Shown one piece after another: positions 9,763 to 61,163 of a stretch of DNA of 64,000 nucleotides. This stretch comes from Bacillota bacterium (GTDB taxonomy: Bacteria > Bacillota > Clostridia > Acetivibrionales > DTU013): the NCBI GenBank assembly GCA_023435745.1, contig JAEZMD010000018.1:472265-536264 (forward strand), read 5' to 3'. Made by a program: the position numbers and the translations under genes. Under the pieces are notes generated by a model. It was not told the DNA's origin, did no database searches, and saw nothing but the letters and a program-made list of their open reading frames with translations. Within the stretch, counting starts at the first letter, position 1, and every line of letters begins with the position of its first letter.

Positions 9763-9778
9763 GTTGAACAAATAGTAT

Positions 9779-9819: not shown

Positions 9820-9849
9820 ATACTAAAATTATTATCTGCTTCCGTTTTA

Positions 9850-9858
9850 TGGTATAAT
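9850..9858 (+). promoter_or_regulatory. extended -10 promoter element (TGgTATAAT) upstream of the sensor operon
   Basis: TGGTATAAT at 9850-9858, about 55 nt upstream of ATG 9912. No good -35 element. Confidence 0.4.
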
Positions 9859-9911
9859 TATTATTGGTGATTACGAACAAGCTCGTCGGCACGGTAGGGA
9901 GGGTGTAAAGA

Positions 9912-10922: not shown

Positions 10923-10940
10923 CACAAAGGTAATCAAGCT

Positions 10941-42618: not shown

Positions 42619-43257
42619 TTGCCGGGGGAAGCTTTGAGAGGAATCAGCGAGACTAAATTTATATCAAGAGTTAAAAAGAAAAGCAATAAGAAAAGGATAT
42701 TTGCCGTTGTATTGCTTTTGTTGCTTCTTCAATTTGCTGCGATCGAAGGGCTGATCATCCTCAATGGACGATCTGACGCCGAGGTCAGAACAGACTTTCT
42801 GATTATTCCGGGCGCGGGGTTAAAAGGCAGAATCATTTCTCCGGCCCTTCAATCCAGACTTGACGCGGGTTTGCGCTATTTGCAGAAAAACCCTGATGTG
42901 AAGGTAGTAGTATCCGGGGGGCAGGGAAGAGGCGAGGACATTACTGAGGCGGAGGCTATGCGCGAATTTTTGACAGCCAACGGCATCGATGAGAGCAGAG
43001 TACTGTCCGAACCAAATGCGACGAGCACGATGGAGAACTTCAAATTCAGCAAGGCTCTGATAGAACAAGAATCAGGCAAACCAGCTTCTGAGATCACTTT
43101 CGTAACAAACAGCTTCCATGTTCTCCGGGCAAAAATGCTGTCGGGACGCAACGGCCTTAACGCAAACGCTATCGCCTGCGATACGTGGAAGGACCTTCCT
43201 CTGTATTATCTGAGGGAATACTTTGCAATAATCAAATCTTTTTTCATAGACCATTAA
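42619..43257 (+). CDS. YdcF/DUF218 (ElyC/SanA-like) family membrane-anchored protein
   Basis: TM anchor followed by DFLIIPGAG...VVVSGGQG...EAEAM...NS.H..RA, typical of DUF218. The start codon is uncertain (TTG 42619 or TTG 42634). Confidence 0.75.
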   Translation: MPGEALRGISETKFISRVKKKSNKKRIFAVVLLLLLLQFAAIEGLIILNGRSDAEVRTDFLIIPGAGLKGRIISPALQSRLDAGLRYLQKNPDVKVVVSGGQGRGEDITEAEAMREFLTANGIDESRVLSEPNATSTMENFKFSKALIEQESGKPASEITFVTNSFHVLRAKMLSGRNGLNANAIACDTWKDLPLYYLREYFAIIKSFFIDH

Positions 43258-43394
43258 TAGAAAATCAAACGGTAAATTAACAAATTGTTCAAAAAAAATA
43301 TGAAGATTCTTAACAAAAGCAGGGTAATATTAAGCTGTGCAAAAAAATAATGCGATAGCCTAATTTGGGTTATTTTAGAATGGAGGTAGTAGAC

Positions 43395-44699
43395 ATGAAT
43401 GGTTACAACAATTATTATGACAATTATAGTTACAGGCCTCAAAAGAAAAAAAGCAGAGCGTTCTCTTACATAGCGCTTGTTCTTGTTACTTCCATTGTGA
43501 GCAGTCTGACAGTCGGAGGTATTTTGTACAATAAGTTTTCAGGGGAACTGAAGGCCATTGAACAAGTCGCTGTAGGGAATTCTGCTATTGTTGAGCAGGC
43601 TGTTTCAGCGGCTGTTGCGGATCAGTTGCAGCTTAGCGGGTCACAGGAGGATAAGGGGAATGCTTTGACGGATACACAAGGGTCAGCTTCGGATTTGGAG
43701 AAGGGATCAGGTGTGGATAGCCTGATAAATACAGCCCTGCTGAAAGGATCAGATGTGACAGCCATCGCAAAGAAGGCAGGGCCTTCAATTGTTGGGATAC
43801 GTATGACGGTTGCCGGTACAAGACGGAACTATTATGGATTTTCGAACAGCCGGGTGGGAGAGGGCTCCGGGATCATTATCAGCAAAGACGGCTATATCAT
43901 GACCAATTATCATGTGGTCTCAAGTGCCGATCCAAAGGGCTTAGAAAGCAGCAATACCGTACTTGAGGTGTTCCTGCCGGATGGAAGAGAGGCAAAGGCC
44001 ACATTTAAGGGCGGAGATGAAAAAACGGACCTTGCTGTCATAAAGATCGATCTGAAAAACCTTCCGGTCGCGGATCTGGGTGATTCCTCCGAATTGGAGG
44101 TCGGCGAACTTGCAGTAGCTATAGGTAACCCATTGGGAATGGAATTTGCGGGATCCGTTACAGTAGGCGTTATCAGTGCATTGAACAGAACGGTCGCAAT
44201 GGAAGACAAAACGATGAACCTGATACAGACGGACGCTGCGATCAATGAGGGGAACAGCGGCGGAGCATTGTTAAATTCCCGCGGAGAAGTGATCGGGATC
44301 AATTCGGCCAAGATATCGGCATCAGGAGTTGAAGGCCTTGGCTTTGCAATTCCGATCAATGATGCCAGACCGATAGTGAATCAGTTGATTGACTTCGGGT
44401 ATGTCAGAGGCAGACCGTTCATCGGCATCTCAGGCAAGGAAATTACCAGTGTCTATGCTAACTATTATAACCTGCCTGAAGGGATTCTGATCACAGATGT
44501 TACTCCTAGCAGTGGCGCTCAGAAGGCCGGTATAAAAACAGGGGATGTATTGGTCAGCCTGGACGGAAAGGACATAAAGACCATGGCAGATCTGGATGCG
44601 GTCAAGAAAGCCCACAAACCCGGAGATACGGTAACGGCAATTGTCAGCCGGAACGGAAGCAGAGTGATACTGAAACTGACCTTTGGGGAAGAAACCTAA
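43395..44699 (+). CDS. htrA: HtrA/DegP-family S1C serine protease with a PDZ domain, membrane anchored
   Basis: Catalytic triad context TNYHVV / DLAVIK / GNSGGALLN and a C-terminal PDZ domain (GILITDV...AGIKTGDVLVSLDGK). ATG 43395 lies 8 nt after GGAGG. Confidence 0.9.
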   Translation: MNGYNNYYDNYSYRPQKKKSRAFSYIALVLVTSIVSSLTVGGILYNKFSGELKAIEQVAVGNSAIVEQAVSAAVADQLQLSGSQEDKGNALTDTQGSASDLEKGSGVDSLINTALLKGSDVTAIAKKAGPSIVGIRMTVAGTRRNYYGFSNSRVGEGSGIIISKDGYIMTNYHVVSSADPKGLESSNTVLEVFLPDGREAKATFKGGDEKTDLAVIKIDLKNLPVADLGDSSELEVGELAVAIGNPLGMEFAGSVTVGVISALNRTVAMEDKTMNLIQTDAAINEGNSGGALLNSRGEVIGINSAKISASGVEGLGFAIPINDARPIVNQLIDFGYVRGRPFIGISGKEITSVYANYYNLPEGILITDVTPSSGAQKAGIKTGDVLVSLDGKDIKTMADLDAVKKAHKPGDTVTAIVSRNGSRVILKLTFGEET

Positions 44700-44739
44700 A
44701 AAACGGCATAAGGCTTAAAGGCCTGTATGCTTCATAATA

Positions 44740-44772
44740 AAAGGCTGAAGCGTGTAAACACCTTCAGCCTTT
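44740..44772. terminator. bidirectional rho-independent terminator between htrA and murA
   Basis: aaaggctgaag / cttcagccttt: 11-bp perfect stem, 11-nt loop. T-rich on the minus-strand side (ccttttattatg) and weaker on the plus side. Confidence 0.7.
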
Positions 44773-44798
44773 ACTGATTTGAAATTGTCTGCCGGCTC

Positions 44799-46097
44799 TT
44801 ATTTCAAGGACTGCCGCAGCAGATCCGTTTCTTCGTTCATTCCGTCGCCGGACAATAGGGAGATTTCAGCCCCAAGCTGCCTGAAATCACGGACGATGTC
44901 CTCATAACCACGTTCGATATGCTCCACTCCAGTGATCCTGGTGGTGCCATCCGCCATCAGCCCGGCAAGCACAAGCGCTGTTCCCGCCCTGATGTCACCC
45001 GCATGTACCCATGTCCCTGTCAGGCTTCTATGGCTGTTGATACGGGCGATGCCATTTCTGACGGTAATGTCGGCGCCCATTCTGTTAAGCTGGTCACAGT
45101 GGTTGAAGCGTTTTGGATAGATTCGGTCTGAAACGGTGCTTCTGCCAAGAGCCTTCAGCAGTAAAACCGTAACGGGCTGTTGAAAGTCGCTTTCGAACAT
45201 GGGATATTTTCCTGTGCGAATTCTGGTTGCTTTGATCCTGCCCTCACCATGAACTGTGATGCAGGTATCGGACTGTTCGAAGGAAAGGCCTGTTTCCGTG
45301 AGCTTGGCCATACAGGGCTCAAGATGCTCCGGAATGACATCCTCTACAGTCAGAGTACCTCCGGTGATGCCGGCTCCGATCAGATAAGCTCCTGCGATCA
45401 GGCGGTCGGGAGCGGCGCTATGCGTGCAGCCTCCAAGCGAGGTGACTCCCTGTATCCGGATGGTATCCGTGCCTGCTCCAAAAATACGCGCCCCCATTTT
45501 ATTCAGAAGAACAGCGGTATCCACGACTTCCGGATCCTTTGCCGCATTATAAAGCGTTGTTTTGCCTTTGGCAAGCACAGCGGCCAGCATCACATTGATC
45601 GTAGCGCCGCCGGTCACCACGTCGAAGAAGACCTCGGCTCCGGATAGACCGTCAGCTTCCAGCGTATAGTAGGTATCATAGAGGGTGACATTCGCGCCTA
45701 ACGCTTTCAGTCCTTTAATATGCTGATCGATAGGACGCGAAACAAAGTTATCTCCTCCCGGATAGCCAATCGAGACCTTATGGTGCTTGACAAGCAATGC
45801 GCCGATAAAATAATAGGCGGCACGAAAGGAAGAGGACAGCTGTCGATCAATGTCAGCCGTGCGGATATTTCGTGGATCGATTATGTATGTGTTGTTTTCT
45901 TTCTTAAGATCGGCGCCAATACTTTTCAATATTTGAAATACTACTTTAATATCTGATATCTCAGGTATATTTGAAATACTTACCGGCTCATCTGCCAGAC
46001 AACAGGCCGCCAGCAACGCGAGAGAGCTGTTCTTGGAACCGGGGGCTTTGATCTTTCCATTCAGTGGTTTGGAGCAGTTTACTTCAAGCCATCTCAT
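44799..46097 (-). CDS. murA: UDP-N-acetylglucosamine 1-carboxyvinyltransferase paralogue with Asp in place of the catalytic/fosfomycin-target Cys
   Basis: Collinear with E. coli MurA as I recall it (PGSKNS..., SRPIDQHIKGL, AAKDPEVVDTA, PDRLIAGAY, ESDFQ, GDIRAGTALVLAGL, ERGYEDI). At the PGGC(115) position the sequence reads YPGGDNFVSRPID. Confidence 0.8.
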   Translation of the reverse strand: MRWLEVNCSKPLNGKIKAPGSKNSSLALLAACCLADEPVSISNIPEISDIKVVFQILKSIGADLKKENNTYIIDPRNIRTADIDRQLSSSFRAAYYFIGALLVKHHKVSIGYPGGDNFVSRPIDQHIKGLKALGANVTLYDTYYTLEADGLSGAEVFFDVVTGGATINVMLAAVLAKGKTTLYNAAKDPEVVDTAVLLNKMGARIFGAGTDTIRIQGVTSLGGCTHSAAPDRLIAGAYLIGAGITGGTLTVEDVIPEHLEPCMAKLTETGLSFEQSDTCITVHGEGRIKATRIRTGKYPMFESDFQQPVTVLLLKALGRSTVSDRIYPKRFNHCDQLNRMGADITVRNGIARINSHRSLTGTWVHAGDIRAGTALVLAGLMADGTTRITGVEHIERGYEDIVRDFRQLGAEISLLSGDGMNEETDLLRQSLK

Positions 46098-46231: not shown

Positions 46232-47386
46232 TCATTCTTCCAAGGGCTGCCTGAAAAGCATGGTGAAGTAGCTTGTGGTATAGTCGGCGCCACCGCCCGC
46301 GATTGCATATGAATTACTGTGACCGGTCACCAGGGGTCCCGACGCGCCGATTTCATCCATTGCAGCGAGCAGGGACAGGATGGAGGGAGGTGAGTCGATG
46401 TTATCGTTCCCCATCCGGATTATCGCTTCAGTATTACGTGATTCAATTGCTTTGAGTGTGATTTCATCCATTCTGTCTGCGGTGTATGTGTCAAGATAAT
46501 GCGAAAAATCAATAGAAGCGATGACCATAATCTCCGGATTATCCTGCATTGCTGCTGCGAGATGCTCACCAAGTTTCTTTGAGTCGGCTGCGGAATAATT
46601 TCCGTGGAGCAGGATGGGAACGATCTTTGTATCGGGCAGATAGTATTTTATATATGGTACCAGTCCGGAGATTGAATGCTCGAGCTCCATAAGCGAATCG
46701 TTTTCAGACGAGCCCAGTTCGTCAATCAGGCCGGTGGCAAGCTTCCGGTCGGCTTCAAGCATTCCAAAGGGCGTTCTCCAATCCAAAAGGGAGGTGTGCA
46801 GACCTTTCAGCCCAATTCGTCTGTGGTTGGGTGCAATCACGACAATTGTTTCGGGAGGTTCGTTAGAGAGCATCTGAAAAAAATCCGCAATCATATTTGC
46901 AGCCAGCAAATGATGCGGAACAACGCCGCCTGCAATGCGGCCGGATTCAACATTATCAATGTCATCAGCGCTATCGCTGCTAACGCCGCTGTCTCCGGCT
47001 GATTCAGCTTTAGTATTTGCGGCGGCAGCTGTTACCGATTTAAAAAAATCTTTTTCGGAATAGTGGATACATTGCAGTGTTGTGGTGGTACTGGTCACTG
47101 CTCCGGCGGGAAGGTCTTCAGATTCGGCGGGAATGTCCTCAGATTTGCCGGGAAAGTCTTCTGACTCGCCGGAATTAGTCGAATGACCGGCGGAAGAACC
47201 TCCGGATTGACTGGCATCAGCTGACTTGCCGGCAGAATCCGGCTGATCTGGAGACAGTGGTTTTTCGACCTCCAAAGTCTGTATCTGATTAGCCTGTCCT
47301 ATGAAGTCGAGGTTGAGAATCAGTACCAAAAAAAGGCAAAGCACGGCTGCAATGATTATTACTCTGCGCAAACCGTGCTTTGTCAT
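46232..47386 (-). CDS. Memo-family (AmmeMemoRadiSam system protein B-type) protein with an N-terminal TM anchor and an acidic repeat linker
   Basis: TM anchor RRVIIIAAVLCLFLVLILNL. The linker carries three SED(F/I/L)P units. Memo-like core: GGVVPHHLLA, VVIAPNHRR, LEHSISGLVPYIKYY, IASIDFSHYL, GHSNS. AGGAGG lies 7 nt before the ATG, 25 nt after the A2M stop. Confidence 0.75.
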   Translation of the reverse strand: MTKHGLRRVIIIAAVLCLFLVLILNLDFIGQANQIQTLEVEKPLSPDQPDSAGKSADASQSGGSSAGHSTNSGESEDFPGKSEDIPAESEDLPAGAVTSTTTTLQCIHYSEKDFFKSVTAAAANTKAESAGDSGVSSDSADDIDNVESGRIAGGVVPHHLLAANMIADFFQMLSNEPPETIVVIAPNHRRIGLKGLHTSLLDWRTPFGMLEADRKLATGLIDELGSSENDSLMELEHSISGLVPYIKYYLPDTKIVPILLHGNYSAADSKKLGEHLAAAMQDNPEIMVIASIDFSHYLDTYTADRMDEITLKAIESRNTEAIIRMGNDNIDSPPSILSLLAAMDEIGASGPLVTGHSNSYAIAGGGADYTTSYFTMLFRQPLEE

Positions 47387-47411
47387 GGCTGAACCTCCTG
47401 TTTTCTGATGG

Positions 47412-50400
47412 TTACCTGATTGTTATCTGATCTTTTTTGGTAAACCCGGATATTGCATTATCTGTATGGCGGATCGCCGCGTTGTCCGCAGTAAACGCTC
47501 CTTCGGTGACAGCCATTGCTTCATAAAAAATTGCTTTTACAGGTTTGCCCTTTACATAGTAGTATCCAAAGACTACCTTCTGACCGGTCACTTCGTCCGG
47601 CCAGGAATTGTCATCATAGTATGCCGACGGAATAAATCTGAAGCCGGCAGGCAATATATCAGTGATCTGGTAGTAGCCGTCCGGCGCTGTAGCGCCAAAT
47701 ACGGGCGTAATCGTTATTTTTACCTTATCGGACCGGTTAAAATCGGTTGTTGTTTTGTTGCCGGAGACGAGAGCGTAGGAGCGTAAAATTGACACCTGGC
47801 TGCCGTCGGTATTGCGGATCTGACTGACAGGAGCAACATGGGAGGCCGCAACCTGCACTTTTCCCTGTATATTACTGAATTTGAGGGAGGCAAGCAGCTC
47901 CGGCGTCAGATCAAGTCTGAAGGTTCCGCCATTCTGCAATTCCACCTGCTTTTTCACTCCGTTCAGTTCATAGCTGAAGCTGTTGTTCAGACTGGCCTGC
48001 TTGATATGATTCGACACAAAGATCATTCTTTCCAGGTTGACCAGAAGCTCTGAGGTGGAATTCGACTTGATATAATTGAAGAGCTTTAGCTTTTCAGGTT
48101 CATTCGTCTTCAGCGCGATCAGTGAGCAAAGAGCGGTAGCGTCAATGCTCTCATCCCTTGTTCCTGTCTCAAGCCAAGCCAGTGTTTCGGTGATTGTTCC
48201 GGATCTTTCCATTGCTTCGGTGTAAATATCCTTTGCGCCCTGGAAATCGCCTATTTCTGCCAGCGCCACGCCAAGTACCAGCCTGAGCTCAGGGGTCAGT
48301 TCATCTGACTCAAGAGCCGCGCGTATATCAAGCAACACCGGTTCGTTCAAGGCTGCAAGACCCCAATAGCTGTAGGCGGCATCCTCCGGCATGGTTTCTT
48401 CATTTTCAAGAATCCTTGTGAAGTATGCTGCAAGAGCGTCCCTGTCAATACCATCGGCAGCAAGAGCGGCCATTTTTGCGGATAACGCGGGGTTGCTGCT
48501 GTCATAAGTAAGCAGCGCGAGTCCGCCGTCGTCGGTCTGATATTGACGCAGATCAGATTCTTCATCCATATATGGTTCTTCATTGAAATAATTGAGTAAA
48601 AGCTTTCCTGCCAACTGGCGCGCCAGCTTCTGATCCAGCCTCTGACCCCAACTCCAGTACAGTGAATGCAGTTCATTGTAAAGTGCCGCCGAGTCTTCGC
48701 CGTAGAACACCAGTGAAGTCAGGCCCTTAGCTGAATTTTCTATGGTCATGCCTTCGGCAAGGCTTATATAATCTGTCACAGAGGTCTCCAACAGGCTGTC
48801 TGAAACTCTGAATGGACGTTCCATGGCATCCGTCAGTTTACCGCTGGAGGCTTCCACCTTTACGGTATAGCTGCCTGCGGAAAGGGGCCCCACGGGCAGT
48901 TGAACAGGTGTGTGTGCCACGCCTGCTGCTGTAAATGATTTGGATGCGCCGCCGGTTTGCGTAACGGTGATTTTGTAGTCTACAGCGGCTTTTTCCGCGA
49001 GCTCTGTACCGTAGGCTCTCATCAATATTGATGGATTATCTCCCGTGATAAAGTTCGAATTAAATATCGTATCGACAAAGAATGGCAGCTTCGAGGAAAT
49101 GTTGAGCTTCCCGCTCCCTGCAAACAGGTCTTCTGTGACAGCCTGCCAGGTGATTCTCCAGGAAGTCAGGTTATCTGGCAGCTTGAAGCTGACTTCCGCC
49201 TTTCCGTCACTTCCTGCGGTAACAGTCGTGAACAGAGCACTGTCCTTGAAGTCCGCTCTGACGTAAGCGTCGCCGCCTTCTCCCATCTCCGCCATCGGCG
49301 GACCCATTGTACTCAGGGGTGAAGAATATGAGAGATACTCCGTGAGGATGCCTGATGAGATCCCGGCTCCGTAAATAGAGGACAACAGATCGACAGACTG
49401 ATTGTACATGGCAAAGAAAGCCTCATCCACAACGCTGATATTCATTTGTGCAGCATGCGGCTTTCCGTCGGCGTCTTTTATCTCAAAGGCAAGGTTGACA
49501 GTCTCACCGGGCTTATAGTACTCTTTATCCTGTTTTATGCTGACCTCCAGATTTTTCTCGGTCTTATCAAACCGATATTCCAGGATGCCGGCATCGTACA
49601 TGTCCGTTCCGTCAAAGTACACGGCTTTGATATAAATATTCGGAATGAATTTCTCCTCATAGTTGAAATTAAACACAGGATCGGGAGACAGTTTGTAATC
49701 CATTACGCCGTTTTGCAGACGGAGGAACAGGAATTTGCCGTTTCCGCTATTTACAACGGGCTCTCCCTTATACTTCACTTCAAGAGATACAGGGGCGCCC
49801 AGCCTGCGTGAACGGTCAGGATCCTTTGAGGTCAGTGAGTAAAGGCTGGTGTCATAGGGATCATAATAGTCCCAGTTATAGATGTATTCCGTCTCATCAA
49901 TAACACGACCCTGGGAGTCTGCACCGGTGATACGAACATGGTAGTTTTTGTTCTTTTCGGTGGTGAACTCGAGCTCATATTTGCCGTTCACAGTATTGAA
50001 TGCGTATTGGTTAATCAGATTGTTCACTTCTTTATAATCATAGGTATTCCTTTTTACCTTGTTGATATAGTCATAATATTCTCCTGTGATGATCTGTTCG
50101 TAATATCTTTCGTAAAGCTCCACCCGTACAGGCATATCAACGGAGGCGCCTTTGTATGCTTCCTCCATATAATAGTAGTTTGAGGAATTATTCTCCAGCT
50201 TAGATAGATCAATCCTGTTAGTTTCAAAGCTCAGTGTTGCTTTATTGCCCTCGATGTCTGAATCCATGGAAATCATCGTATCCTTTGGGAATACGGTCAC
50301 AAAGCCGGAAGCCTGAATCTGGCGCTCCTCCGCTTCACGGTTGTTGATATTCAGATAGAGAGAAACCGGTCTCCAACCGACGCTTATATTTGAAGAGGGC

Positions 50401-52361
50401 TGGATGGTCAATTTGGAGGAGCCCGCAGTATCGCTGGTCAGCACTCCGTTTTTATTATCAAATGCTCCTATGGAATAGTAGTAGTCAAGTTCGACGCCTG
50501 ATACCGGCGTGCCCTCAAAGAAGGAGGTGAGGAAGTTGAAATTGACGCTATCCCATGCGTACATATAATTCTTGTCTTTAGTGACATCAATTTTATATAC
50601 GGGTTTTGTGTATTCAATAATCTGAAGGTAGCGGGTTTGCATGATCTGGTCGCCGATACGCAGCCGTACCTCATAAGAGCCAGGGTTATAGTTGGATATT
50701 GCGAGTGTGCCGGTATAGGCGCCATTCGGCGAAATTTCGACATTCTGTGAGGCCAATACCGAGGGCTCCGAATCACCGGACGAATAGTAGTTGTACCTTA
50801 TCAATTCCAGTACGGCATCCTTTTGGCTGTCTTTCCCATCACGTGGTTTAAAAATGCCCCAGATGTTGATTTTATCAGTTGGAAGGAATACATCTTTATC
50901 CAGATAGATATACGACCAGTAATGATCTATAATATCCGTACCGTCGTAATAGCTGTAATATGGTTGGTATTGATAGTTCGCAAGCTCTGCAATATATACC
51001 GGACCCGATGCCGGAGTGATTAGGAAGAAGGAGGAGGAGTCCCTGCTGTTGGGTACATCAAGAACGGCCAATCCATTCCGATCCGATTTGACCGATTTTC
51101 CGCCGTCAAGCTTGAACTCTGCGCCGGACAATGGTTCGCCGGTGGCCGAATCATTCAGCCAGGCCAGTGTCTCAGAGGTGGTCTTCATGATATACACCGA
51201 CGCGGGATGAACCTGAACCTGAGTATAGTACTTTACTCCGTCAACCTCTGCTACCATCAGGTAATAACCACTGGGCAGAGCAGAAGGGAGTACGAGGAAA
51301 TTGCTGTGCCAGTAGCTTTGTACAAATTTAGCGACTCTGCCGGTGAGCGTTGCTGTTTTTTGCAGCTTTGTCTCATCGTATCCGACCTTTGTTCTATCGC
51401 GCAAATACCACGTGGACGAAAGCTGGGAGGCATCCTTCAGATCCTTCAGAAAGCTGTTCGCGTCCGGGTAGCTGTATATCTCAAGAGGAACCTCGGAATC
51501 TGTCATATCGTTCTGCGAATAAATCTCAAAGGCCGGAGCGGTCTGAGGATTGAAGCTGTAGAAGGTATTTGAAAATTCAAAATAAGTGCGGTTGGTTTGG
51601 GTTTCCGGCAAAACGGTCTGGAAACTGAAGGTATAGTCTTCCTTGAGGGGATCTGCGCTGCCTTCGACGGCAATGCCCTTTTTAATTGTGACCGTATAGA
51701 TAGTGCTTTCCTCCAGACCTTCCGGAACAAAGACGACAGTTTTGCCGTGCCACTCAAAACGGCCTTTTACAGCGGGTGATATTTCAAAGAATTTTTCAAT
51801 GTTCTGAGCATTTTCATGGCTGAAGGTGATTTCGATACCGGATGCCAGCGGCACCTGCACGCCTTGATTGCGGGGCAGGGTACGGACGACATTAAAGGCT
51901 TTTTTAGTCTGGAATGCCCACGAATGCTTTTCTCCTGTGTTATTATCGCTCAAAATAAAGTTATAAACGCTGTCGCTTTGCAGTGGCTTTTCAAACTCCA
52001 TGCTGTATTCCTTTGCAGAAACCTTTGTCAGCTTGAATTTCTGTTTTGGCTTGATACTCAGAGATTTCTCAAGCTCCTTTTCGTCCGGCGTCCTGGTGAA
52101 TACAAGCTTGAATGCGGAGGTCAGGCTCACACCCAGACTGTCGGCGTCGACGGCCGATATCTTTACATCCGTATCCAGAAAGCGCACAGTTCCCTCTTGT
52201 GTGGCGGTGGGTTCTTCATTGTAAGACGGCTGCTCCATATCCTTGCGGTCGAATGCACCCAGCAGCGCAGCGGCGCCAAAGCCGACAGCCAGCACGAGAA
52301 CAGATATTATTGTGATCAAAACGGGTTTTTTTCTTAGATACCCTGACAATTTATTTATCAT
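47412..52361 (-). CDS. giant (1649 aa) membrane-anchored alpha-2-macroglobulin family protein with no thioester motif
   Basis: N-terminal TM anchor and Ig-like/SbsA-type N-terminal domains. A2M hallmark FKDSALFTTVTAGSDGKAEVSFKLPDNLTSWRITWQAVT. The TED-like alpha-helical region reads LYWSWGQRLDQ where CxEQ would be expected. Confidence 0.8.
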   Translation of the reverse strand: MINKLSGYLRKKPVLITIISVLVLAVGFGAAALLGAFDRKDMEQPSYNEEPTATQEGTVRFLDTDVKISAVDADSLGVSLTSAFKLVFTRTPDEKELEKSLSIKPKQKFKLTKVSAKEYSMEFEKPLQSDSVYNFILSDNNTGEKHSWAFQTKKAFNVVRTLPRNQGVQVPLASGIEITFSHENAQNIEKFFEISPAVKGRFEWHGKTVVFVPEGLEESTIYTVTIKKGIAVEGSADPLKEDYTFSFQTVLPETQTNRTYFEFSNTFYSFNPQTAPAFEIYSQNDMTDSEVPLEIYSYPDANSFLKDLKDASQLSSTWYLRDRTKVGYDETKLQKTATLTGRVAKFVQSYWHSNFLVLPSALPSGYYLMVAEVDGVKYYTQVQVHPASVYIMKTTSETLAWLNDSATGEPLSGAEFKLDGGKSVKSDRNGLAVLDVPNSRDSSSFFLITPASGPVYIAELANYQYQPYYSYYDGTDIIDHYWSYIYLDKDVFLPTDKINIWGIFKPRDGKDSQKDAVLELIRYNYYSSGDSEPSVLASQNVEISPNGAYTGTLAISNYNPGSYEVRLRIGDQIMQTRYLQIIEYTKPVYKIDVTKDKNYMYAWDSVNFNFLTSFFEGTPVSGVELDYYYSIGAFDNKNGVLTSDTAGSSKLTIQPSSNISVGWRPVSLYLNINNREAEERQIQASGFVTVFPKDTMISMDSDIEGNKATLSFETNRIDLSKLENNSSNYYYMEEAYKGASVDMPVRVELYERYYEQIITGEYYDYINKVKRNTYDYKEVNNLINQYAFNTVNGKYELEFTTEKNKNYHVRITGADSQGRVIDETEYIYNWDYYDPYDTSLYSLTSKDPDRSRRLGAPVSLEVKYKGEPVVNSGNGKFLFLRLQNGVMDYKLSPDPVFNFNYEEKFIPNIYIKAVYFDGTDMYDAGILEYRFDKTEKNLEVSIKQDKEYYKPGETVNLAFEIKDADGKPHAAQMNISVVDEAFFAMYNQSVDLLSSIYGAGISSGILTEYLSYSSPLSTMGPPMAEMGEGGDAYVRADFKDSALFTTVTAGSDGKAEVSFKLPDNLTSWRITWQAVTEDLFAGSGKLNISSKLPFFVDTIFNSNFITGDNPSILMRAYGTELAEKAAVDYKITVTQTGGASKSFTAAGVAHTPVQLPVGPLSAGSYTVKVEASSGKLTDAMERPFRVSDSLLETSVTDYISLAEGMTIENSAKGLTSLVFYGEDSAALYNELHSLYWSWGQRLDQKLARQLAGKLLLNYFNEEPYMDEESDLRQYQTDDGGLALLTYDSSNPALSAKMAALAADGIDRDALAAYFTRILENEETMPEDAAYSYWGLAALNEPVLLDIRAALESDELTPELRLVLGVALAEIGDFQGAKDIYTEAMERSGTITETLAWLETGTRDESIDATALCSLIALKTNEPEKLKLFNYIKSNSTSELLVNLERMIFVSNHIKQASLNNSFSYELNGVKKQVELQNGGTFRLDLTPELLASLKFSNIQGKVQVAASHVAPVSQIRNTDGSQVSILRSYALVSGNKTTTDFNRSDKVKITITPVFGATAPDGYYQITDILPAGFRFIPSAYYDDNSWPDEVTGQKVVFGYYYVKGKPVKAIFYEAMAVTEGAFTADNAAIRHTDNAISGFTKKDQITIR

Positions 52362-52651: not shown

Positions 52652-54979
52652 ATGACTGGCGATAATATTTTAGCATTAATCGATAAAATGACACTTGAAG
52701 AAAAAGCAGGTATGTGCTCGGGCAAAAATTGGTTCGAAACTAAAGATGTAGAGCGATTGGGCATCCCTAGAATACAGATGTTTGATGGACCAAATGGTCT
52801 TAGAAAAAATGCGGGTAGAAGTGAGAATGATAATTTTGGAGGGTATACTGCTGTAAAGTCTACTTGTTTTCCCACGGGTAGCGCAATGGCAGCATCATGG
52901 GACGTTGATCTTCTTTATGAGATTGGGCAAAAAATGGGCGAAGAATGTCAAACGGAGCAAGTTCCGCTTTTACTTGGCCCAGCAATTAATATGAAGCGTT
53001 CTCCTCTTTGCGGAAGAAATTTTGAATATCTATCGGAGGATCCATATCTAGGAGGCAAACTTGCAGCTGCTCTTGTGAAAGGCATACAATCGCAAGGGGT
53101 AGGAGCATGCTTGAAACATTTTGCAGCGAACAATCAAGAATATAGACGATTGTCCGTAAATAGCATAATAGACGAACAAACACTAAGAGAAATTTATTTG
53201 ACTGCTTTTGAGATTGCAGTAAAAGAAGCAAGTCCGCTGACAATTATGTGTGCATATAACATGATTAACGGTACGCATTGCTGTGAGAACAAGCACATAC
53301 TTAATGACATATTGCGTGAAGAGTGGGGCTTTGAAGGAATTGTCATATCTGATTGGGGTGCTATGAATCATAGAGTTGAATCGCTTGCTGCAGGACTTGA
53401 ACTTGAGATGCCTTACAGTGGACCTGAAAATGACAGTCAAATTATTAGTGCTGTAAAGTCGGGTGAGCTCAGTGAAGATATACTCAACAGATCTGTTTAC
53501 AGATTATTAAAGTTTATTTTTAAAGTATATGAATCAAAGAAGAAAAGTTATATTTTCAATAATAAAGAACATCATCATTTCGCAAGAAAAGCTGCATCAG
53601 AATGTATGGTTCTTCTGAAAAATTCTGATAGCCTGCTCCCTCTTAAAGCCAATACAAAAATTGCGCTTATCGGAGAAATGGCAGAGTTCACAAGATATCA
53701 GGGCGGTGGAAGTTCTCATGTTACAGCTACATGTATAGACAATATCTTAACCGAAATGAAGTCAAAGACCGGTAGTTTTACATATGCAAAGGGTTATAGC
53801 CTTTCAGAGGATGATGTAAATTATGATCTGATAAATGAAGCTACATTACTTGCCCAACAAAATGAAGTGGCTGTTATTATTGCAGGACTCCCGGATAAAT
53901 ATGAATCTGAACATTACGACAGGCCTTCTATGAAGATGCCTGACGGTCATGTTAAATTGATTGAAGCGGTAGCGAAAGCTAATCCTAACACGGTGGTTGT
54001 TCTGCTAAATGGATCCCCGGTTGAAATAGGCTGGGAAAGCAGTGTTAAAGGAATTCTTGAAGCTTATCTTGGGGGTCAGGCTACAGCAGGAGCTATTTGT
54101 GATATTTTGTTCGGGGATGTAAACCCAAGCGGAAAACTGGCAGAATCTTTTCCTATAAAGCTTGAAGATAATCCGTCATTTCTCAATTATTCAGACGATA
54201 CATATGAAGTTAATTACCATGAGTGCGTTTATATCGGCTATCGGTACTATGATAAAAAAAAGATGCAAGTACAGTATCCTTTTGGATTTGGCTTAAGTTA
54301 TACAACATTTTCTTACAGTGATATCAGGGTTGATAAAAAAGACATAATTGCCGGTGAAGAAGTATGTATCACAGTAAAAATAAAGAATACCGGAAAAGTC
54401 AAGGGTAAAGAGATTGTTCAGCTTTACACCGGGCCTGTTTGCACTGCAGGAAGACCGGTCAAGGAACTTAGGGCATTTAAAAAAGTTGAACTTTACCCCG
54501 GAGAGGAAAAAACAATTTCCTTCACACTTGGTAAACGTGGATTTGCGTATTACAACGCTTATATTAGTGACTGGCATGTGAAAAGCGGAAAATATAGTAT
54601 CTATGTTGGATCATCATCCAGAGATATTCACCTGATTGAAACAATTAACATAATTACTGATGTTGATGTAACACGTGCTATTGATATTAATACAACACTG
54701 GGCGATTTGCTCGAAGACAGCAGGACTGCAGAAGTAACGCTGGAAATGCTAAAAAAACATGCCCCTAGTGTTTTAGCATATCACAATAAAGATACAGACA
54801 TTGATTACAGCGCTATTAGTGTAGATATGGCAAAAGAGATGCTGCATAATATGCCGCTTAGAGAGGCGCGCCTATTTTCAAAAGGAACAATGACTGACGC
54901 AATATTAAATGATTTTATTATAAAACTTAATAATATTATTAATGCATCGGAGGTTCCAAATGGAAAAGTCGCCCATTAA
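52652..54979 (+). CDS. GH3 family beta-glucosidase/beta-glycosidase (no signal peptide)
   Basis: GPNGLR, KHFAANNQE, nucleophile context GIVISDWGA, and a C-terminal fibronectin-III-like domain (FGFGLSYTTF...). Confidence 0.9.
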   Translation: MTGDNILALIDKMTLEEKAGMCSGKNWFETKDVERLGIPRIQMFDGPNGLRKNAGRSENDNFGGYTAVKSTCFPTGSAMAASWDVDLLYEIGQKMGEECQTEQVPLLLGPAINMKRSPLCGRNFEYLSEDPYLGGKLAAALVKGIQSQGVGACLKHFAANNQEYRRLSVNSIIDEQTLREIYLTAFEIAVKEASPLTIMCAYNMINGTHCCENKHILNDILREEWGFEGIVISDWGAMNHRVESLAAGLELEMPYSGPENDSQIISAVKSGELSEDILNRSVYRLLKFIFKVYESKKKSYIFNNKEHHHFARKAASECMVLLKNSDSLLPLKANTKIALIGEMAEFTRYQGGGSSHVTATCIDNILTEMKSKTGSFTYAKGYSLSEDDVNYDLINEATLLAQQNEVAVIIAGLPDKYESEHYDRPSMKMPDGHVKLIEAVAKANPNTVVVLLNGSPVEIGWESSVKGILEAYLGGQATAGAICDILFGDVNPSGKLAESFPIKLEDNPSFLNYSDDTYEVNYHECVYIGYRYYDKKKMQVQYPFGFGLSYTTFSYSDIRVDKKDIIAGEEVCITVKIKNTGKVKGKEIVQLYTGPVCTAGRPVKELRAFKKVELYPGEEKTISFTLGKRGFAYYNAYISDWHVKSGKYSIYVGSSSRDIHLIETINIITDVDVTRAIDINTTLGDLLEDSRTAEVTLEMLKKHAPSVLAYHNKDTDIDYSAISVDMAKEMLHNMPLREARLFSKGTMTDAILNDFIIKLNNIINASEVPNGKVAH

Positions 54980-55853
54980 TAGACGGAAGCTTGATTTCTT
55001 TCCCTACCTGATGTCTTTGCCTTCATTAGTAGGGATCGGACTAATTTGCTTTTATCCCATGTTCCAAGGTATATATTTGAGCTTCACGAAAACAAAGTTG
55101 ACGGCGCCGGGGGATATGCGATTTATTGGCTTGGAAAATTTTCAAAAACTTGCCGTTGACAAACAATTTTGGAATTCATTTTATTTTACAATTGTATATA
55201 CCTTAGTATCTACCATATTTGCTTACCTGCTAGGCCTTGCTGTGGCATTGATGATGAATAGAGATTTAAGATTTAAAAGTGCCATAAGAGCATTATTGCT
55301 GCTTCCTTGGGTTGTACCTGCGGTTGTAGGGACAACTGCATGGCAGTGGATACTTAATGATCAGTCCGGTGTTGTTAACATTTTTTTGCAGAGCATCGGA
55401 TTAATAAAATCACCTATTCTATTTCTTGCAAATCCGGATTATGCAGTAATAACAGTTATCGCGTTTTGCGTATGGAAGACCTTCCCGTTTATGGCTATTA
55501 CAATCCTGGCAAGCTTGCAAGGAATAAGCGGTGATATAAATGAAGCGGCATTGATGGACGGTACTAATATATTTCAAAGATTTCACTATATTACATTACC
55601 AATGATCAAGCGAGAGAGTATTCTTGCAATTATGCTTATGATTATGTGGAACTTCAATAGGATGGACTACATATATCTTATGACACAAGGCGGCCCGGTT
55701 TCGGCAACTCGAGTATCAGCTATCTATGCATATTTTACGGCTTTCTTCAGAGGAAGCCTGGGTAGTGCTTCTGCTATATCTGTGTCAATGATGCTGATTA
55801 TGATTGCTTTTCTGTTTGTCTACTTTAAAATACGGAAGGATGGGAATGACTGA
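54960..55853 (+). CDS. carbohydrate ABC transporter permease (MalF/CUT1 type)
   Basis: Six TM helices and an EAA loop (EAALMDGTNIFQRFHYITLPM). ATG 54960 follows GGAGG and overlaps the GH3 3' end. Confidence 0.9.
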   Translation: MEKSPINRRKLDFFPYLMSLPSLVGIGLICFYPMFQGIYLSFTKTKLTAPGDMRFIGLENFQKLAVDKQFWNSFYFTIVYTLVSTIFAYLLGLAVALMMNRDLRFKSAIRALLLLPWVVPAVVGTTAWQWILNDQSGVVNIFLQSIGLIKSPILFLANPDYAVITVIAFCVWKTFPFMAITILASLQGISGDINEAALMDGTNIFQRFHYITLPMIKRESILAIMLMIMWNFNRMDYIYLMTQGGPVSATRVSAIYAYFTAFFRGSLGSASAISVSMMLIMIAFLFVYFKIRKDGND

Positions 55854-56686
55854 TGGCAAAGAAAATATTAAATAGAATTGGCGCCGATTTGTTGCTTGCA
55901 ATAATGTTATTCATTATCCTTTTTCCGATAATGTATATGATTATTACATCATTAAAATCCAGCGGTGAAATACTGGTAAATAGGAGCTTAGTACCAAAGG
56001 AGATTTCTCTGGAAAATTACAGAGAGATTGTTATTAAAACGAATTTTGGTAAATACACATTAAATTCATTATATGTAGCTATTATAGTTACAATATGGAC
56101 GACTATTTTTGCATCAATGACAGGCTATGTTATTGCGCTTTATAAAAATAAAAATATATTCTTTAATATTTTTTCAAAATTGCTTTTAGTGCTTCAAATG
56201 TTTCCAATTATGCTAATGATCATACCTCTTTACAGGACATTCTCACTTTTTGAATTACTTAATTCGAAAAATGCGCTAGTAATTATTTATGGTACATTTT
56301 CATTACCTTTTTCAATATGGCTTCTTTCAGGCTTTTTTGAAGGGTTCCCAAGAGAATTGGCGGAATCGGGCCGTATTGATGGGTGCAATAAACTGGAAAT
56401 ATTTATAAAGCTTGTGATTCCAATCTCGAGTCCGGGTATAGCGTCTGCAGCTATATTTACATTCATCAATTCATGGAATGAATTTATGATTGCAAATATA
56501 TTTATTCAAAGCGATTCAGAAAAAACAATTCCATTGGGTCTTACAAATTTCATTCTGCAATTCGGTTCAGAGTGGGGTAATTTGATGGCGGCAGCAACCA
56601 TCACTATTATACCGGTATCAATTTTCCTGGTCTTCACACAAAAGTATATTGTACAGGGTTTAACTGCCGGGGCAATTAAAGGATAG
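55853..56686 (+). CDS. carbohydrate ABC transporter permease (MalG/CUT1 type)
   Basis: EAA loop ESGRIDGCNKLEIFIKLVIPIS. ATGA overlap with the upstream permease. Confidence 0.9.
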   Translation: MAKKILNRIGADLLLAIMLFIILFPIMYMIITSLKSSGEILVNRSLVPKEISLENYREIVIKTNFGKYTLNSLYVAIIVTIWTTIFASMTGYVIALYKNKNIFFNIFSKLLLVLQMFPIMLMIIPLYRTFSLFELLNSKNALVIIYGTFSLPFSIWLLSGFFEGFPRELAESGRIDGCNKLEIFIKLVIPISSPGIASAAIFTFINSWNEFMIANIFIQSDSEKTIPLGLTNFILQFGSEWGNLMAAATITIIPVSIFLVFTQKYIVQGLTAGAIKG

Positions 56687-56797
56687 CTTTACGCGTAAAG
56701 GATCAATAATAAAGACGAGGAAAGGAGGAGAACCGGAAGGGTAAAGAAGTATGTTTAAATCCAGATGCAAAACAATTATATGAGGGGGGTAACAAGA

Positions 56798-58168
56798 ATG
56801 AAAAAACTAGTATGTCTTACCATGTGTTGTCTGCTTATATTTAGTATTGCAGCTTGCGGCAATACGGTAAATGAGAAATCACCTGCTACAAATGAGAAAT
56901 CACCTGCTACATCAGAGAGTACAGAACCAGCAGCTTCATCGGCAAGTACTCAGAAAGATACAGAAGCCGGTGATGTTACATTGGAGTTCTGGGACATGCC
57001 ATGGGGCGGTACAGATTATCAAGCGGAGGTTAACTCACTTTTAGCATCATATACAGAGAAAACAGGTATTAAGTTCAACTACACAAGTCTTTCTTGGGAT
57101 AAATGGCTGCAGGTTTTTATGACAGCTGTTTCCTCGGGAACCGCTCCTGATTTTAGTACAGGCGGGTCACTGTTAGGTCATCGTTTGGCTTTAACAGACG
57201 ATGCATACAATATGGCGGACTTTGTAAAAGAGAACTTCGAAGATGACTTCTTTGCTGATGAAGCTGTTGATACCTTCTATTCCGGGGACACACTTGTCGG
57301 CGTACCGTGGAATATGGATCTTCGCAGTATATACTACCGTAAAGATATATTTGAGAAAGCGGGCATCACTAAGCTCCCGACAACATGGGATGAGTTTTAT
57401 GAGACATGTAAAAAGTTAACACATGATAGTCAGTACGGATATGTTACAAGTGGCAGTGATAATATGGCATATTGGGAATTCATGTTTTGGTCAGTGAGTA
57501 ACGGAGGGCACTTCCTTAATAGTGAGATGAAATCTGAAATGGATAACGATGCAAACATAGAAGTGGCGAATTATCTTCGTAAGCTTTACAAGGATGGTCT
57601 CATGCCTGAGGGAACGCCGGGTTATACAAAGAGTGATTCAAAAACTGCATTCCTGTCAGGTACATCAGCTATGGTAATGGCAGGTCCAAGTTTTCTAGCT
57701 GAAATTAAAAAAGCTAATCTTGGGGATGTTGTCGGTGTACTTCCTCCTATGACATCACCTGGCGGATTAACACAGTCAGTTGGCAGCTTTAATGCGATAT
57801 TTGTTTATGCAGACTCGGAATATACAAAAGAATCACTTGATTTTATTTCATGGTATCTAAGAAACAATAGTACATTATGGTCAAAAGGTGGTATGGGATC
57901 TCTGCCGGCAGTAAAAAGTACTCTATCTGATAAGTTCTTTTCAGATAGTAAACTGCACAAGGAGCTTATTGATAATATCATTCCGAAGACCGTAATTCAA
58001 GCGTATCCGTTTAAGAGCTATTCAATTGAAATGGATCTGATGGACAGTGAGCAGTACTACACAGATGTTCTTCAGGCTGTTTATGTAACAGATACAGATG
58101 CAAAAGCAATTCTGGAAGATGCAGATGATAACTATAATGCTGCACTTGAAGAACTAAAGTCTAACTAA
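56798..58168 (+). CDS. extracellular solute-binding lipoprotein (CUT1 family)
   Basis: Lipobox FSIAAC and an SBP_bac_1-type sequence. Start at ATG 56798 after GAGGGGGG. The linker carries a perfect NEKSPAT duplication. No ATPase gene lies in the island. Confidence 0.88.
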   Translation: MKKLVCLTMCCLLIFSIAACGNTVNEKSPATNEKSPATSESTEPAASSASTQKDTEAGDVTLEFWDMPWGGTDYQAEVNSLLASYTEKTGIKFNYTSLSWDKWLQVFMTAVSSGTAPDFSTGGSLLGHRLALTDDAYNMADFVKENFEDDFFADEAVDTFYSGDTLVGVPWNMDLRSIYYRKDIFEKAGITKLPTTWDEFYETCKKLTHDSQYGYVTSGSDNMAYWEFMFWSVSNGGHFLNSEMKSEMDNDANIEVANYLRKLYKDGLMPEGTPGYTKSDSKTAFLSGTSAMVMAGPSFLAEIKKANLGDVVGVLPPMTSPGGLTQSVGSFNAIFVYADSEYTKESLDFISWYLRNNSTLWSKGGMGSLPAVKSTLSDKFFSDSKLHKELIDNIIPKTVIQAYPFKSYSIEMDLMDSEQYYTDVLQAVYVTDTDAKAILEDADDNYNAALEELKSN

Positions 58169-58181
58169 AATTAAAAGCGTC

Positions 58182-58213
58182 ATTCGGCGCCTGTGGTTAT
58201 ACAGGCGCCGAAT
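58182..58213 (+). terminator. GC-rich stem-loop after the binding-protein gene (putative terminator)
   Basis: attcggcgcctgt / acaggcgccgaat: 13-bp perfect stem, 6-nt loop. The T-rich tract is on the opposite-strand side only, so efficiency is uncertain. Confidence 0.5.
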
Positions 58214-58350
58214 AATGCATGACAAACGGCAATACCTTTTGACGTGGTTCTGTAATTGGGTATGGAATATTTGTTTAATATAGTCATTTTGCAGTATTTA
58301 TGTTAGACTTAAATAAACTATTTAATTAATAAAGATGGAGTCAATATAAT

Positions 58351-59535: not shown

Positions 59536-59564
59536 AATTTAAAGCTTATGAAGGGGGAATCATT

Positions 59565-60134
59565 TTGAAAACATATTTAAATAATTATATAAATGAAGTA
59601 GCCAGTAATGTTTGTAAGAGCGATATAGAAATATTGGGTAAAATTGCTGAATTTATTATAAATACAAAAAAAACAAATTCTCGCATTTTTACTGCAGGTA
59701 ATGGTGGAAGTGCTGCTACAGCATCACATATTACGAATGATTTGCTAAAGGGATGCCGAGTAGGTTCAAATACAGGATTTGCTGCTTTTTCGCTAAATGA
59801 TTCGGTACCAATAATAACATGTCTTGCAAATGATTTTAGCTATGATGAGGTTTATTCAATTCAACTTGAGACTTATGGGCAAAAAGGTGATTTGCTTATT
59901 GTATTTAGCGGAAGCGGGAATTCCAGAAATATAGTAAATGCGGTTAAAAAAGCAAAAGAAATGGGTATCGTGACAGTTGGATTTACTGGCCGCGACGGAG
60001 GTGAATTGAAACATTTGTGCGATATGCTAATTATTGCTCCAACAAAATCAATGGAACAGATTGAAGATATTCACATGATATATGAGCACGCCTTGGTTAG
60101 TTATATACAAGAAGCCTTGAAGGAATTGGTATAA
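59565..60134 (+). CDS. SIS-domain sugar-phosphate isomerase (GmhA/DiaA-like)
   Basis: 189 aa with FTAGNGGSAATASH...LIVFSGSGNS...VGFTGRDGG. TTG start after GAAGGGGGA. Confidence 0.8.
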   Translation: MKTYLNNYINEVASNVCKSDIEILGKIAEFIINTKKTNSRIFTAGNGGSAATASHITNDLLKGCRVGSNTGFAAFSLNDSVPIITCLANDFSYDEVYSIQLETYGQKGDLLIVFSGSGNSRNIVNAVKKAKEMGIVTVGFTGRDGGELKHLCDMLIIAPTKSMEQIEDIHMIYEHALVSYIQEALKELV

Positions 60135-60138
60135 TAAG

Positions 60139-61089: not shown

Positions 61090-61163
61090 AGTAGTTTAGA
61101 TATTGCCAATGATTTTATTATTTCGTTCATGCTATTATATCAGTTCAATGTCGAGGGGGCTAA

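Follow-up and report, generated by a model that had tools for sequence, protein, structure and literature searches.

Why should a gene for a large, membrane-anchored protein related to alpha-2-macroglobulin (A2M) be followed, in a bacterium of the class Clostridia, by a gene for an exported protein of the Memo family? The question is raised by a stretch of 64,000 nucleotides from the Bacillota assembly GCA_023435745.1 (contig JAEZMD010000018.1, positions 472,265 to 536,264), hereafter the window, in which the two genes lie on the minus strand, the A2M-like gene first. The answer that we develop below is that the two genes form a pair that has been maintained in several bacterial phyla and that would encode a two-protein module on the cell surface. 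The initial annotation of this DNA, made from the sequence alone, had the positions and sizes of both open reading frames (ORFs), the gap between them and its AGGAGG exactly as they are given here:

47412-52361, minus strand: A2M-like gene, 1649 aa, membrane-anchored and without a thioester (ORF, Pfam, AlphaFold2, Foldseek)
47387-47411, minus strand: intergenic spacer of 25 nt, with the Shine-Dalgarno sequence AGGAGG at 47394-47399
46232-47386, minus strand: Memo-like gene, 384 aa, exported Memo-fold protein (Pfam, NCBIfam, AlphaFold2)

Conservation of the gene pair

Relatives of the A2M-like protein are encoded in at least 533 species-representative genomes. In the best 80 loci among these genomes, a Memo gene lies directly downstream on the same strand in 71, which amounts to 71 of the 72 informative loci: of the 9 loci without Memo, contig ends truncate 8, and the remaining one (L048) is described below. 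When the loci are approached from the Memo side, an A2M-like gene is found directly upstream in 67 of the 68 metagenome loci with enough upstream DNA, the exception (L107) having HipA fragments in this place. The adjacency in other genomes, which the initial annotation had named as one test of its own reading, is thus conserved in both directions. Among 72 related loci, the two genes overlap by 4 nt in 28 and by some other length in 6, and are 0-30 nt apart in a further 19. Memo is the sole conserved partner across 160 loci, and an all-against-all clustering of the flanking ORFs from 82 genome loci yielded no other neighbor conserved beyond a single clade; in Petroclostridium sp. X23, the flanks of the pair are entirely different. 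Across three phyla, the surroundings change and the two genes stay together, often with coupled translation.

The pair-bearing phyla are Bacillota, Chloroflexota and Patescibacteria, and the taxa include Clostridia, Tissierellales, Peptococcia, Syntrophomonadales, Symbiobacterium, Tepidanaerobacter, Dehalococcoidia, Limnocylindria and Parcubacteria, all of which we take to be single-membrane lineages. The closest genome relatives of the window locus come from uncultured metagenome-assembled genomes of Bacillota, Oscillospiraceae and Hungateiclostridiaceae. Across the phyla, the A2M domain order is kept at 25-30% identity, and the Memo partners form about 1,460 clusters (50% identity) at E<=1e-30. 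Several cultured hosts are open to experiments, among them Pseudobacteroides cellulosolvens ATCC 35603, Brassicibacter mesophilus DSM 24659, Tepidanaerobacter sp. GT38 and Petroclostridium sp. X23.

Some loci depart from the simple two-gene layout. In L048 (Patescibacteria), the only informative locus without Memo, transposase-like ORFs directly follow the A2M gene (L048:6341-7044), and about 11 consecutive glycines make up the loop at the bait position. L132 has the order A2M-Memo-A2M (1675-6582, 6869-7759 and 7858-12735), with a second A2M paralog of the lipoprotein type directly after Memo. In L024, a gene for a 251-aa lipoprotein with weak similarity to parallel-beta-helix (NosD-like) proteins stands between A2M and Memo (L024:5973-6728) and overlaps the A2M stop codon by 4 nt; a gap of similar size separates the two genes in L026.

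A complete A2M architecture without a thioester

The A2M-like protein exceeds the Pfam gathering cut-offs for A2M_BRD (44.7 bits, cut-off 22.7), A2M (32.5 bits, cut-off 21) and Big_5 (43.7 bits, cut-off 23.6); MG2, at 29.4 bits, stays under its cut-off of 32.8, and no NCBIfam model matches the protein. The domains and sites behind its anchor, all on the minus strand and listed from the N-terminus, are these:

51615-51902, minus strand: Big_5 immunoglobulin-like domain, residues 154-249 (Pfam E 4.9e-11)
49407-49805, minus strand: A2M bait-region domain, residues 853-985 (Pfam A2M_BRD E 2.1e-11)
49266-49343, minus strand: disordered loop at the bait position, residues 1007-1032 (...PPMAEMGEGGDA), with a predicted local distance difference test (pLDDT) score below 50 at residues 558-583 of the AlphaFold2 (AF2) model
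49029-49238, minus strand: A2M domain, residues 1042-1111, containing PDNLTSWR (Pfam A2M E 7.9e-8)
48630-48650, minus strand: WGQRLDQ, residues 1238-1244, at the thioester position, with Arg1241 in the place of Cys and the Gln kept
47997-48698, minus strand: all-helical domain resembling the thioester-containing domain (TED), residues 1222-1455 (AF2 helices, model residues 773-1006)
47415-47984, minus strand: C-terminal beta-sandwich region, residues 1460-1649, MG8/bMG10-like (AF2 strands)

An AF2 model of residues 450-1649 (47415-51014), built on 77 homologs, has a pLDDT of 85.4. Its best PDB matches in Foldseek are the Escherichia coli A2M, ECAM (5a42, E 5e-56), and the Salmonella A2M (4u48, E 2e-55), with further matches to complement C3/C4/C5, CD109 and TEP1, the E values overall ranging from 1e-44 to 5e-56. 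In profile comparisons, the TED-like region matches the TED/C-terminal region of the Salmonella and E. coli A2Ms, and the C-terminal beta-sandwich region matches residues 1297-1626 of 4u48. The protein has a complete A2M architecture, comprising macroglobulin (MG) domains, the bait-region domain, the TED-like helical domain and a C-terminal MG domain; the family assignment made in the initial annotation is confirmed both by the A2M hidden Markov models (HMMs) and by the fold.

The thioester motif CxEQ is absent from the A2M-like protein, in which WGQRLDQ had already been recognized in its place, and from about 100 subfamily members (P0121-P0221). It is present in more distant relatives (about 1950 aa), where, judged by the spacing from the last aligned block, it maps to about residues 1243-1246 of the query. 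The site follows the pattern G-x-R-[LIV]-[DE]-Q, kept across 75 homologs and represented in the window by G-Q-R-L-D-Q: an invariant Arg stands where the thioester Cys would be, and the Gln has been kept. The thioester has thus been lost, and the conservation of the pattern indicates that the site is still under selection.

The loop 1007-1032 is the sole long disordered segment in the AF2 model and lies between the bait-region and A2M domains. Its core, AE.GGEGG[DS]..R.DF, is strongly conserved in 75 homologs and is not hypervariable.

An exported protein with the Memo fold

The partner protein scores 100.1 bits against Pfam Memo (PF01875; cut-off 27, E 1.6e-28) and 109.8 bits against NCBIfam TIGR04336, AmmeMemoRadiSam system protein B (cut-off 26), the name under which its homologs appear in public annotation. 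Behind its own anchor, the following features are found:

47078-47305, minus strand: acidic S/G/D/E-rich linker, residues 28-103 (about 76 aa), of varying length and sequence among homologs
46235-47077, minus strand: Memo-fold domain, residues 104-384 (AF2, Pfam)
46910-46918, minus strand: motif PHH, residues 157-159
46823-46831, minus strand: motif PNH, residues 186-188
46673-46681, minus strand: motif EHS
46499-46510, minus strand: motif DFSH, residues 293-296

The AF2 model of residues 100-384 (pLDDT 93.9) matches human MEMO1 (3bcz/7kq8) in Foldseek with a TM-score of 0.68 and E 1.6e-13, and also matches TK2203 and class III extradiol dioxygenases. The initial annotation had called the Memo domain complete; HMM and fold both identify it as Memo, and the HMM match, which spans profile positions 44-256 of 269, makes it nearly complete. 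The PHH, PNH and DFSH motifs and the three repeats SEDFP, SEDIP and SEDLP (linker residues 75-93, 47108-47164) are all where they had been reported, in the Memo-like protein. The linker is acidic and S/G/D/E-rich as described, and is not a single stretch of about 110 aa: its roughly 76 residues are followed by a conserved helix starting L104-Q-C106 and then by a second, low-confidence acidic insert at about 130-149.

In 146 non-redundant Memo partners, the residues H158, P186, H188, G208, D293, F294, S295, H296 and D331 are invariant, and H159 and H237 are kept in 141. By profile alignment, H188, H237, D293 and H296 correspond to H81, H131, D189 and H192 of MEMO1, which binds iron or copper via H49, H81 and C244, with H131, D189 and H192 nearby (PMC11081632); H158 is, judged by the motif, the probable equivalent of H49. 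The fold is that of Memo/LigB, and the His/Asp residues that correspond to the metal site of MEMO1 are strictly conserved. H356, considered as a third metal ligand, was rejected: a His is found at this position in just 99 of the 146 partners.

Both proteins face outward

The two proteins are anchored in the same way:

52254-52322, minus strand: N-terminal transmembrane anchor of the A2M-like protein, residues 14-36, after K4, R10, K11 and K12
47306-47362, minus strand: N-terminal signal-anchor of the Memo-like protein, residues 9-27, after K3, R7 and R8

The A2M-like protein begins with MINKLSGYLRKKP, followed by one hydrophobic helix, and a hydropathy scan found no other hydrophobic segment; the Memo-like protein likewise has no second one. 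Acidic sequence follows the hydrophobic helix in both proteins. By the positive-inside rule, a positively charged N-terminus stays in the cytoplasm, so that the positive N-termini and the single N-terminal helices place both bodies on the outside: each protein is predicted to be anchored N-in/C-out. In the related loci, 69 of 73 Memo partners have an N-terminal hydrophobic segment, as have 69 of 79 A2M homologs; a lipobox (LSGC, LTGC, LVAC and similar) occurs in 26 of the 73 and, in place of that segment, in 8 of the 79; among the full-length representatives of the Memo subfamily, drawn from a library of 1.8 billion proteins, 124 of 136 have an N-terminal hydrophobic stretch. The external position of the Memo domain proposed in the initial annotation agrees with these signals (the positive N-terminus, the single helix and the lipoboxes of the partners), which predict export. 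Its two-component extracytoplasmic unit is supported by the adjacency, the topology signals, and the A2M HMMs and fold; the function that it envisaged for this unit, a protease trap plus an accessory enzyme, is one that we, too, can only infer. Export of the Memo-like protein by the Tat pathway, considered because of the sequence L-R-R-V, was rejected since the RR is not kept in close homologs.

Variant architectures

Related loci present several elaborations of the pair. In 7 of the 80 genome loci (L054, L057, L069, L074, L075, L076 and L078; sigma gene at about 7040-7660, A2M from about 7590) and in 3 metagenome loci (L130, L154 and L163), all from Bacillota and Dehalococcoidia, the start of the A2M-like gene is overlapped by a gene for an extracytoplasmic function (ECF) sigma factor (TIGR02937, 88.7 bits, cut-off 42.9; Sigma70_r2 and r4_2 present). 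Exactly these sigma-linked A2M-like proteins have 85-125 additional, conserved cytoplasmic residues ahead of the transmembrane helix, an extension for which Pfam gave no match and a database search no homolog. With the overlapping gene, a cytoplasmic N-terminal domain, one transmembrane helix and a large ectodomain, this is the classical arrangement of an ECF sigma factor and its single-pass anti-sigma factor, an assignment made from gene order and topology; it differs from the known pairs in that the ectodomain is a whole A2M, Memo follows, and the N-terminal domain matches no anti-sigma family. The window does not have this layout, its protein having 13 cytoplasmic residues and no sigma gene being present within 10 kb of the pair.

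In Parcubacteria-type homologs, it is precisely the conserved loop that is interrupted by a Hint/PT-HINT domain (…AEGGG|C…VHN|QKGG.R..F.D…). The insert occupies residues 1017-1152 of P0183 (L087:6001-11349), which has Memo directly downstream, and is also present in P0178, P0180, P0184, P0186, P0193, P0198, P0203 and P0215. Hint domains have established cleavage and splicing chemistry in inteins and bacterial intein-like (BIL) domains. The terminal His-Asn is followed by Q, D, E, N or A, and never by C, S or T; in the absence of a nucleophilic residue here, ligation is not expected, so the inserts were rejected as splicing inteins and should cleave rather than splice. A Hint-bearing homolog would be, on the strength of these motifs, a self-cleaving A2M.

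A sister group of A2Ms of about 1,700 aa has a genuine CxEQ, with Memo directly downstream (at about 6800) in 12 of 12 loci (L114, L115, L118, L125, L134, L135, L141, L142, L145, L147, L152 and L157). By motif, 11 of these 12 also have a Hint-type insert at the same loop, and all four members scanned with Pfam contain TED_complement and Hint domains. The initial annotation had presented the pairing as one of thioester-less A2Ms, and P0224, a classical CxEQ relative of 1971 aa without a Memo neighbor, pointed the same way; the CxEQ sister group refutes this specificity. Memo is therefore tied to an A2M lineage and not to the loss of the thioester, and the partnership either predates or outlasts that loss.

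Finally, Memo itself is fused in four loci to a C-terminal PGA_cap domain, a CapA-like metalloenzyme, yielding proteins of 659-712 aa (L086:10863-12965, L121/L122:6872-8848 and L131:2466-4601); 9 of the top 150 Memo representatives in the library are also 515-681 aa long. The PGA_cap domain has a weak NCBIfam match, far below threshold (30.8 bits, cut-off 700), to the lasso-peptide C-terminal Trp epimerase MslH.

Relationship to known systems

Two types of bacterial A2M have been described, both from Gram-negative bacteria, one associated with PBP1c and the other with the Mag/Yfa proteins. For comparison with these and other systems, the Pfam families of neighbors within 10 kb were taken from the window's metagenome-assembled contig (ENA ERZ28596075).

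The type II proteins, MagD of Pseudomonas aeruginosa and YfaS of E. coli, resemble the A2M-like protein in the lack of a thioester, the full A2M architecture and the loop at the bait position, and the family profile scores E. coli YfaS at 168 bits, compared with 61 bits for YfhM. Both systems are membrane-associated, as the Mag complex is, and the MagD/YfaS type depends on accessory proteins from its own operon, as the A2M-like protein presumably does: thioester-less MagD traps protease non-covalently and needs operon partners including MagB for stability (PMC5764988). The differences are that the mag/yfa operon has six genes and the present one two, with none of the partners DUF2138, DUF1175, DUF2300 and DUF2135 in the window's neighborhood; that MagD/YfaS is periplasmic with a transmembrane partner, whereas the A2M-like protein has its own N-terminal anchor in a monoderm; and that the partner here is a Memo-fold metalloprotein and the loop core AE.GGEGG is not present in E. 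coli YfaS. The pair would work most like type II MagD/YfaS, yet lacks the operon by which that system is defined.

The type I proteins, ECAM/YfhM and the Salmonella A2M, are the best structural matches and share with the A2M-like protein the domain order, tethering to a membrane and one conserved neighbor gene. Sequence similarity to them is only marginal; YfhM has CLEQ at residue 1187, where the window has G-Q-R-L-D-Q, and type I proteins are periplasmic lipoproteins of Gram-negative bacteria, in contrast to the transmembrane anchor, the homologs in monoderm phyla and the lack of a penicillin-binding protein or pbpC gene within 10 kb of the pair. Having neither CxEQ nor a pbpC neighbor, the A2M-like protein is not a type I A2M.

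The Memo-like protein shares its fold with human MEMO1, archaeal TK2203 and LigB, and the equivalents of H81, H131, D189 and H192 of MEMO1 are invariant or nearly so; it differs from MEMO1 and TK2203 in being exported and membrane-tethered, at about 18-20% identity, and in being encoded after an A2M-like gene. Its resemblance to AmmeMemoRadiSam system protein B consists in the TIGR04336 match and the annotation of its homologs, against which stand the export signal, the A2M-like partner and the lack of AMMECR1-type or radical-SAM neighbors. The latter had been noted in the initial annotation and was corroborated: the Pfam families listed within 10 kb on the window's contig include neither Radical_SAM nor AMMECR1, and neither is conserved in the 82 clustered loci. 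A crude scan of the 64-kb window found no ORF with an N-terminal CxxxCxxC, the single such motif being at residue 254 of an unrelated 304-aa ORF. By its context, the Memo-like protein does not belong to the AmmeMemoRadiSam system, and the name is therefore probably misleading for this subfamily.

The pairing thus adds to the two known settings of bacterial A2Ms a third, phylogenetically broad one with a different, strictly conserved partner. With it, the Memo family, which lacks a known biochemical function all the way from archaea to humans, gains a constant protein partner that is accessible to genetics; one Memo subfamily, moreover, is probably mis-annotated as AmmeMemoRadiSam system protein B. 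A search of 8 million full texts, absence from which is not proof, found no description of the pairing, of the sigma-linked forms or of the forms with Hint in the bait loop.

A model for the pair and its alternatives

We propose that the single operon encodes an obligate module of two proteins, the A2M-like and the Memo-like one, which sit on the outside of the cytoplasmic membrane of a monoderm bacterium (Clostridia-type) and would form an approximately 1:1 (stoichiometric) complex. The A2M-like body would undergo, in the manner of A2Ms, a large conformational switch, set off when the flexible loop that lies between the bait-region and A2M domains is cut. Because the loop core is conserved and is interrupted by a self-cleaving Hint domain in other lineages, this scission is probably a specific, programmed event rather than the capture of arbitrary proteases. 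Memo would be a metal-dependent enzyme or a cofactor-bearing subunit serving the cycle (maturation, stabilization, or chemistry on captured or cleaved species) and not a passive anchor, in a role that may be common to all three architectures; since Memo is kept where the thioester exists, it is not a substitute for the thioester. The physiological role could be protection or surveillance of the cell envelope, and as the default functional model we adopt non-covalent trapping, as shown for thioester-less MagD (PMC5764988). The structural and genomic claims on which this proposal builds are, in our judgment, very probably correct; the proposal in its entirety, an obligate A2M-Memo surface module of a monoderm with a loop-scission switch and a metal-dependent Memo, has about an even chance of being right; and the trap-type function of the A2M-like protein is a tentative element, somewhat more apt to be wrong than right.

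Several observations weigh against the proposal. The physical interaction between the two proteins is presumed from gene order. The conserved loop is atypical for a broad-spectrum trap and a poor fit to a promiscuous bait. The A2M-like model superposes better on protease-activated ECAM (TM-score 0.60 for 4ziq and 0.57 for 4rtd) than on native ECAM or the Salmonella A2M (only 0.33-0.35), a preference that may be a modeling artefact or could reflect a family without the classical spring-loaded native state, resting in an activated-like conformation. On the side of Memo, an equivalent of C244, the third metal ligand of MEMO1, was not found in the Memo-like protein, and the retention of Memo where Hint can cut the loop means that Memo is not simply the loop-cutting enzyme. 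Most of the pair-bearing hosts are, presumably, anaerobes, which makes dioxygenase or oxidase chemistry unlikely, and no substrate can be named.

A more far-reaching version of the proposal, which we regard as unlikely, posits an ancient A2M-Memo surface machine common to monoderm and candidate phyla radiation (CPR) bacteria, in which loop scission leads either to capture or to ECF sigma activation and Memo is the catalytic subunit. The trigger cut would be made by a cognate or foreign protease or, in the Patescibacteria-type forms, autocatalytically by Hint through a Gly-Cys thioester at the loop, and sigma activation would take place where the cytoplasmic anti-sigma-like domain is present. 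If this version is true, the A2M is a transmembrane receptor for proteases or damage with a Memo-fold metalloprotein as its catalytic subunit, and, for the first time, a molecular partner and a context have been defined for a prokaryotic Memo protein. The Hint-in-loop, sigma-linked and thioester-bearing variants offer testable mechanisms for thioester-less A2Ms and for their purpose.

Given the sigma-linked forms, envelope sensing is the main rival of the proposed module. The A2M-like ectodomain would then be mainly a receptor, with attack on or processing of the loop as the transmembrane signal and trapping secondary; where the ECF sigma gene is present, the A2M-like protein itself would be the anti-sigma factor, and the short-tailed form in the window would signal via another partner or be a decoy. 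The sigma overlap in 10 loci, with the cytoplasmic extension in exactly those proteins and in both Bacillota and Dehalococcoidia, speaks for such a sensor. We nevertheless consider it rather unlikely, given that just 13 residues of the window's protein are cytoplasmic, that a sigma gene is absent from the 10 kb around the pair, that the sigma gene is missing from most loci, and that the extension, without Pfam or database matches, owes its anti-sigma reading to gene order and topology.

A slightly less probable alternative makes Memo a maturation enzyme and the A2M-like protein its substrate, modified or processed once, after which Memo is dispensable; the target would be the Gly/Glu loop or R-x-[DE]-Q. 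The strict, coupled order with Memo directly after A2M, the strong conservation of both candidate target sites and the invariance of catalytic-type residues in Memo are what this reading would lead one to expect, and the recurrent PGA_cap fusion, with its sub-threshold MslH match, lends it some color. Yet Memo-family proteins are not known to carry out any modification chemistry, MEMO1 having shown no enzymatic activity (PMC11081632), and Memo persists both in the self-cutting Hint forms and in the thioester-bearing forms without R-x-D-Q, so that neither the loop nor R-x-[DE]-Q is a universal target.

Still less probable is that the A2M-like protein is an MG-domain surface scaffold or adhesin whose function has nothing to do with proteases, and that it holds a cell-wall or extracellular polymer on which Memo, joined in the fusions by PGA_cap, would act. 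The PGA_cap fusions in four loci, the parallel-beta-helix lipoprotein encoded between the genes in L024, the loss of the thioester and a bait loop that is conserved rather than variable are compatible with such a role; the retention across phyla, at 25-30% identity, of the complete order of A2M domains, with the bait-position loop and the TED-like domain in place, is hard to explain for a mere scaffold, and sister forms retain a genuine CxEQ/TED. That the Memo-like protein is an ordinary cytosolic AmmeMemoRadiSam system protein B next to an A2M gene by chance, as the TIGR04336 score (109.8 bits against 26) and the naming of its homologs might suggest, is highly improbable in view of the N-terminal signal-anchor or lipobox in nearly all members, the adjacency to A2M in about 99% of informative loci in both directions, the lack of AMMECR1 or Radical_SAM within 10 kb and the lack of any further neighbor family conserved in 82 loci.

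Flanking genes

Downstream of the pair, the window contains the following genes:

44799-46097, minus strand: MurA, co-directional with and downstream of the Memo gene
43365-44699, convergent with MurA: membrane-anchored HtrA-type protease (Trypsin_2 and PDZ)
42619-43257: DUF218 gene

The initial annotation had described MurA as divergent and as an echo of the Gram-negative association of A2M with a peptidoglycan synthase. MurA lies on the same strand as the pair and has its own strong promoter-like site (TTAACA-17-TATAAT at 46168-46140), and it follows Memo only in the close clade (20 related loci, A2M identity >=50%) and never in distant loci. It was therefore rejected as a component of the system, and the proposed echo of the PBP1c association is unsupported. 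The block of MurA, HtrA-type protease and DUF218 genes (42619-46097) is syntenic with the pair in about 16-20 close-clade loci only. Rfam found nothing in the window, and PADLOC gave no match for either the A2M-like or the Memo-like protein.

On the other side of the pair, a block of about 10 kb (52652-62366) has a G+C content of 0.365, compared with 0.48-0.52 on both sides. By Pfam, its genes encode a GH3 glycosidase, two ABC permeases and a solute-binding protein and, judged by N-terminal sequence only, an apparent ROK-type regulator, kinases and an MFS-like protein, so that the block looks like an inserted sugar-utilization island. It sits between the A2M gene and a gene resembling CCA-adding enzymes and poly(A) polymerases (62509-63858), which in 22 related loci (for example, L003) is found immediately upstream of A2M.

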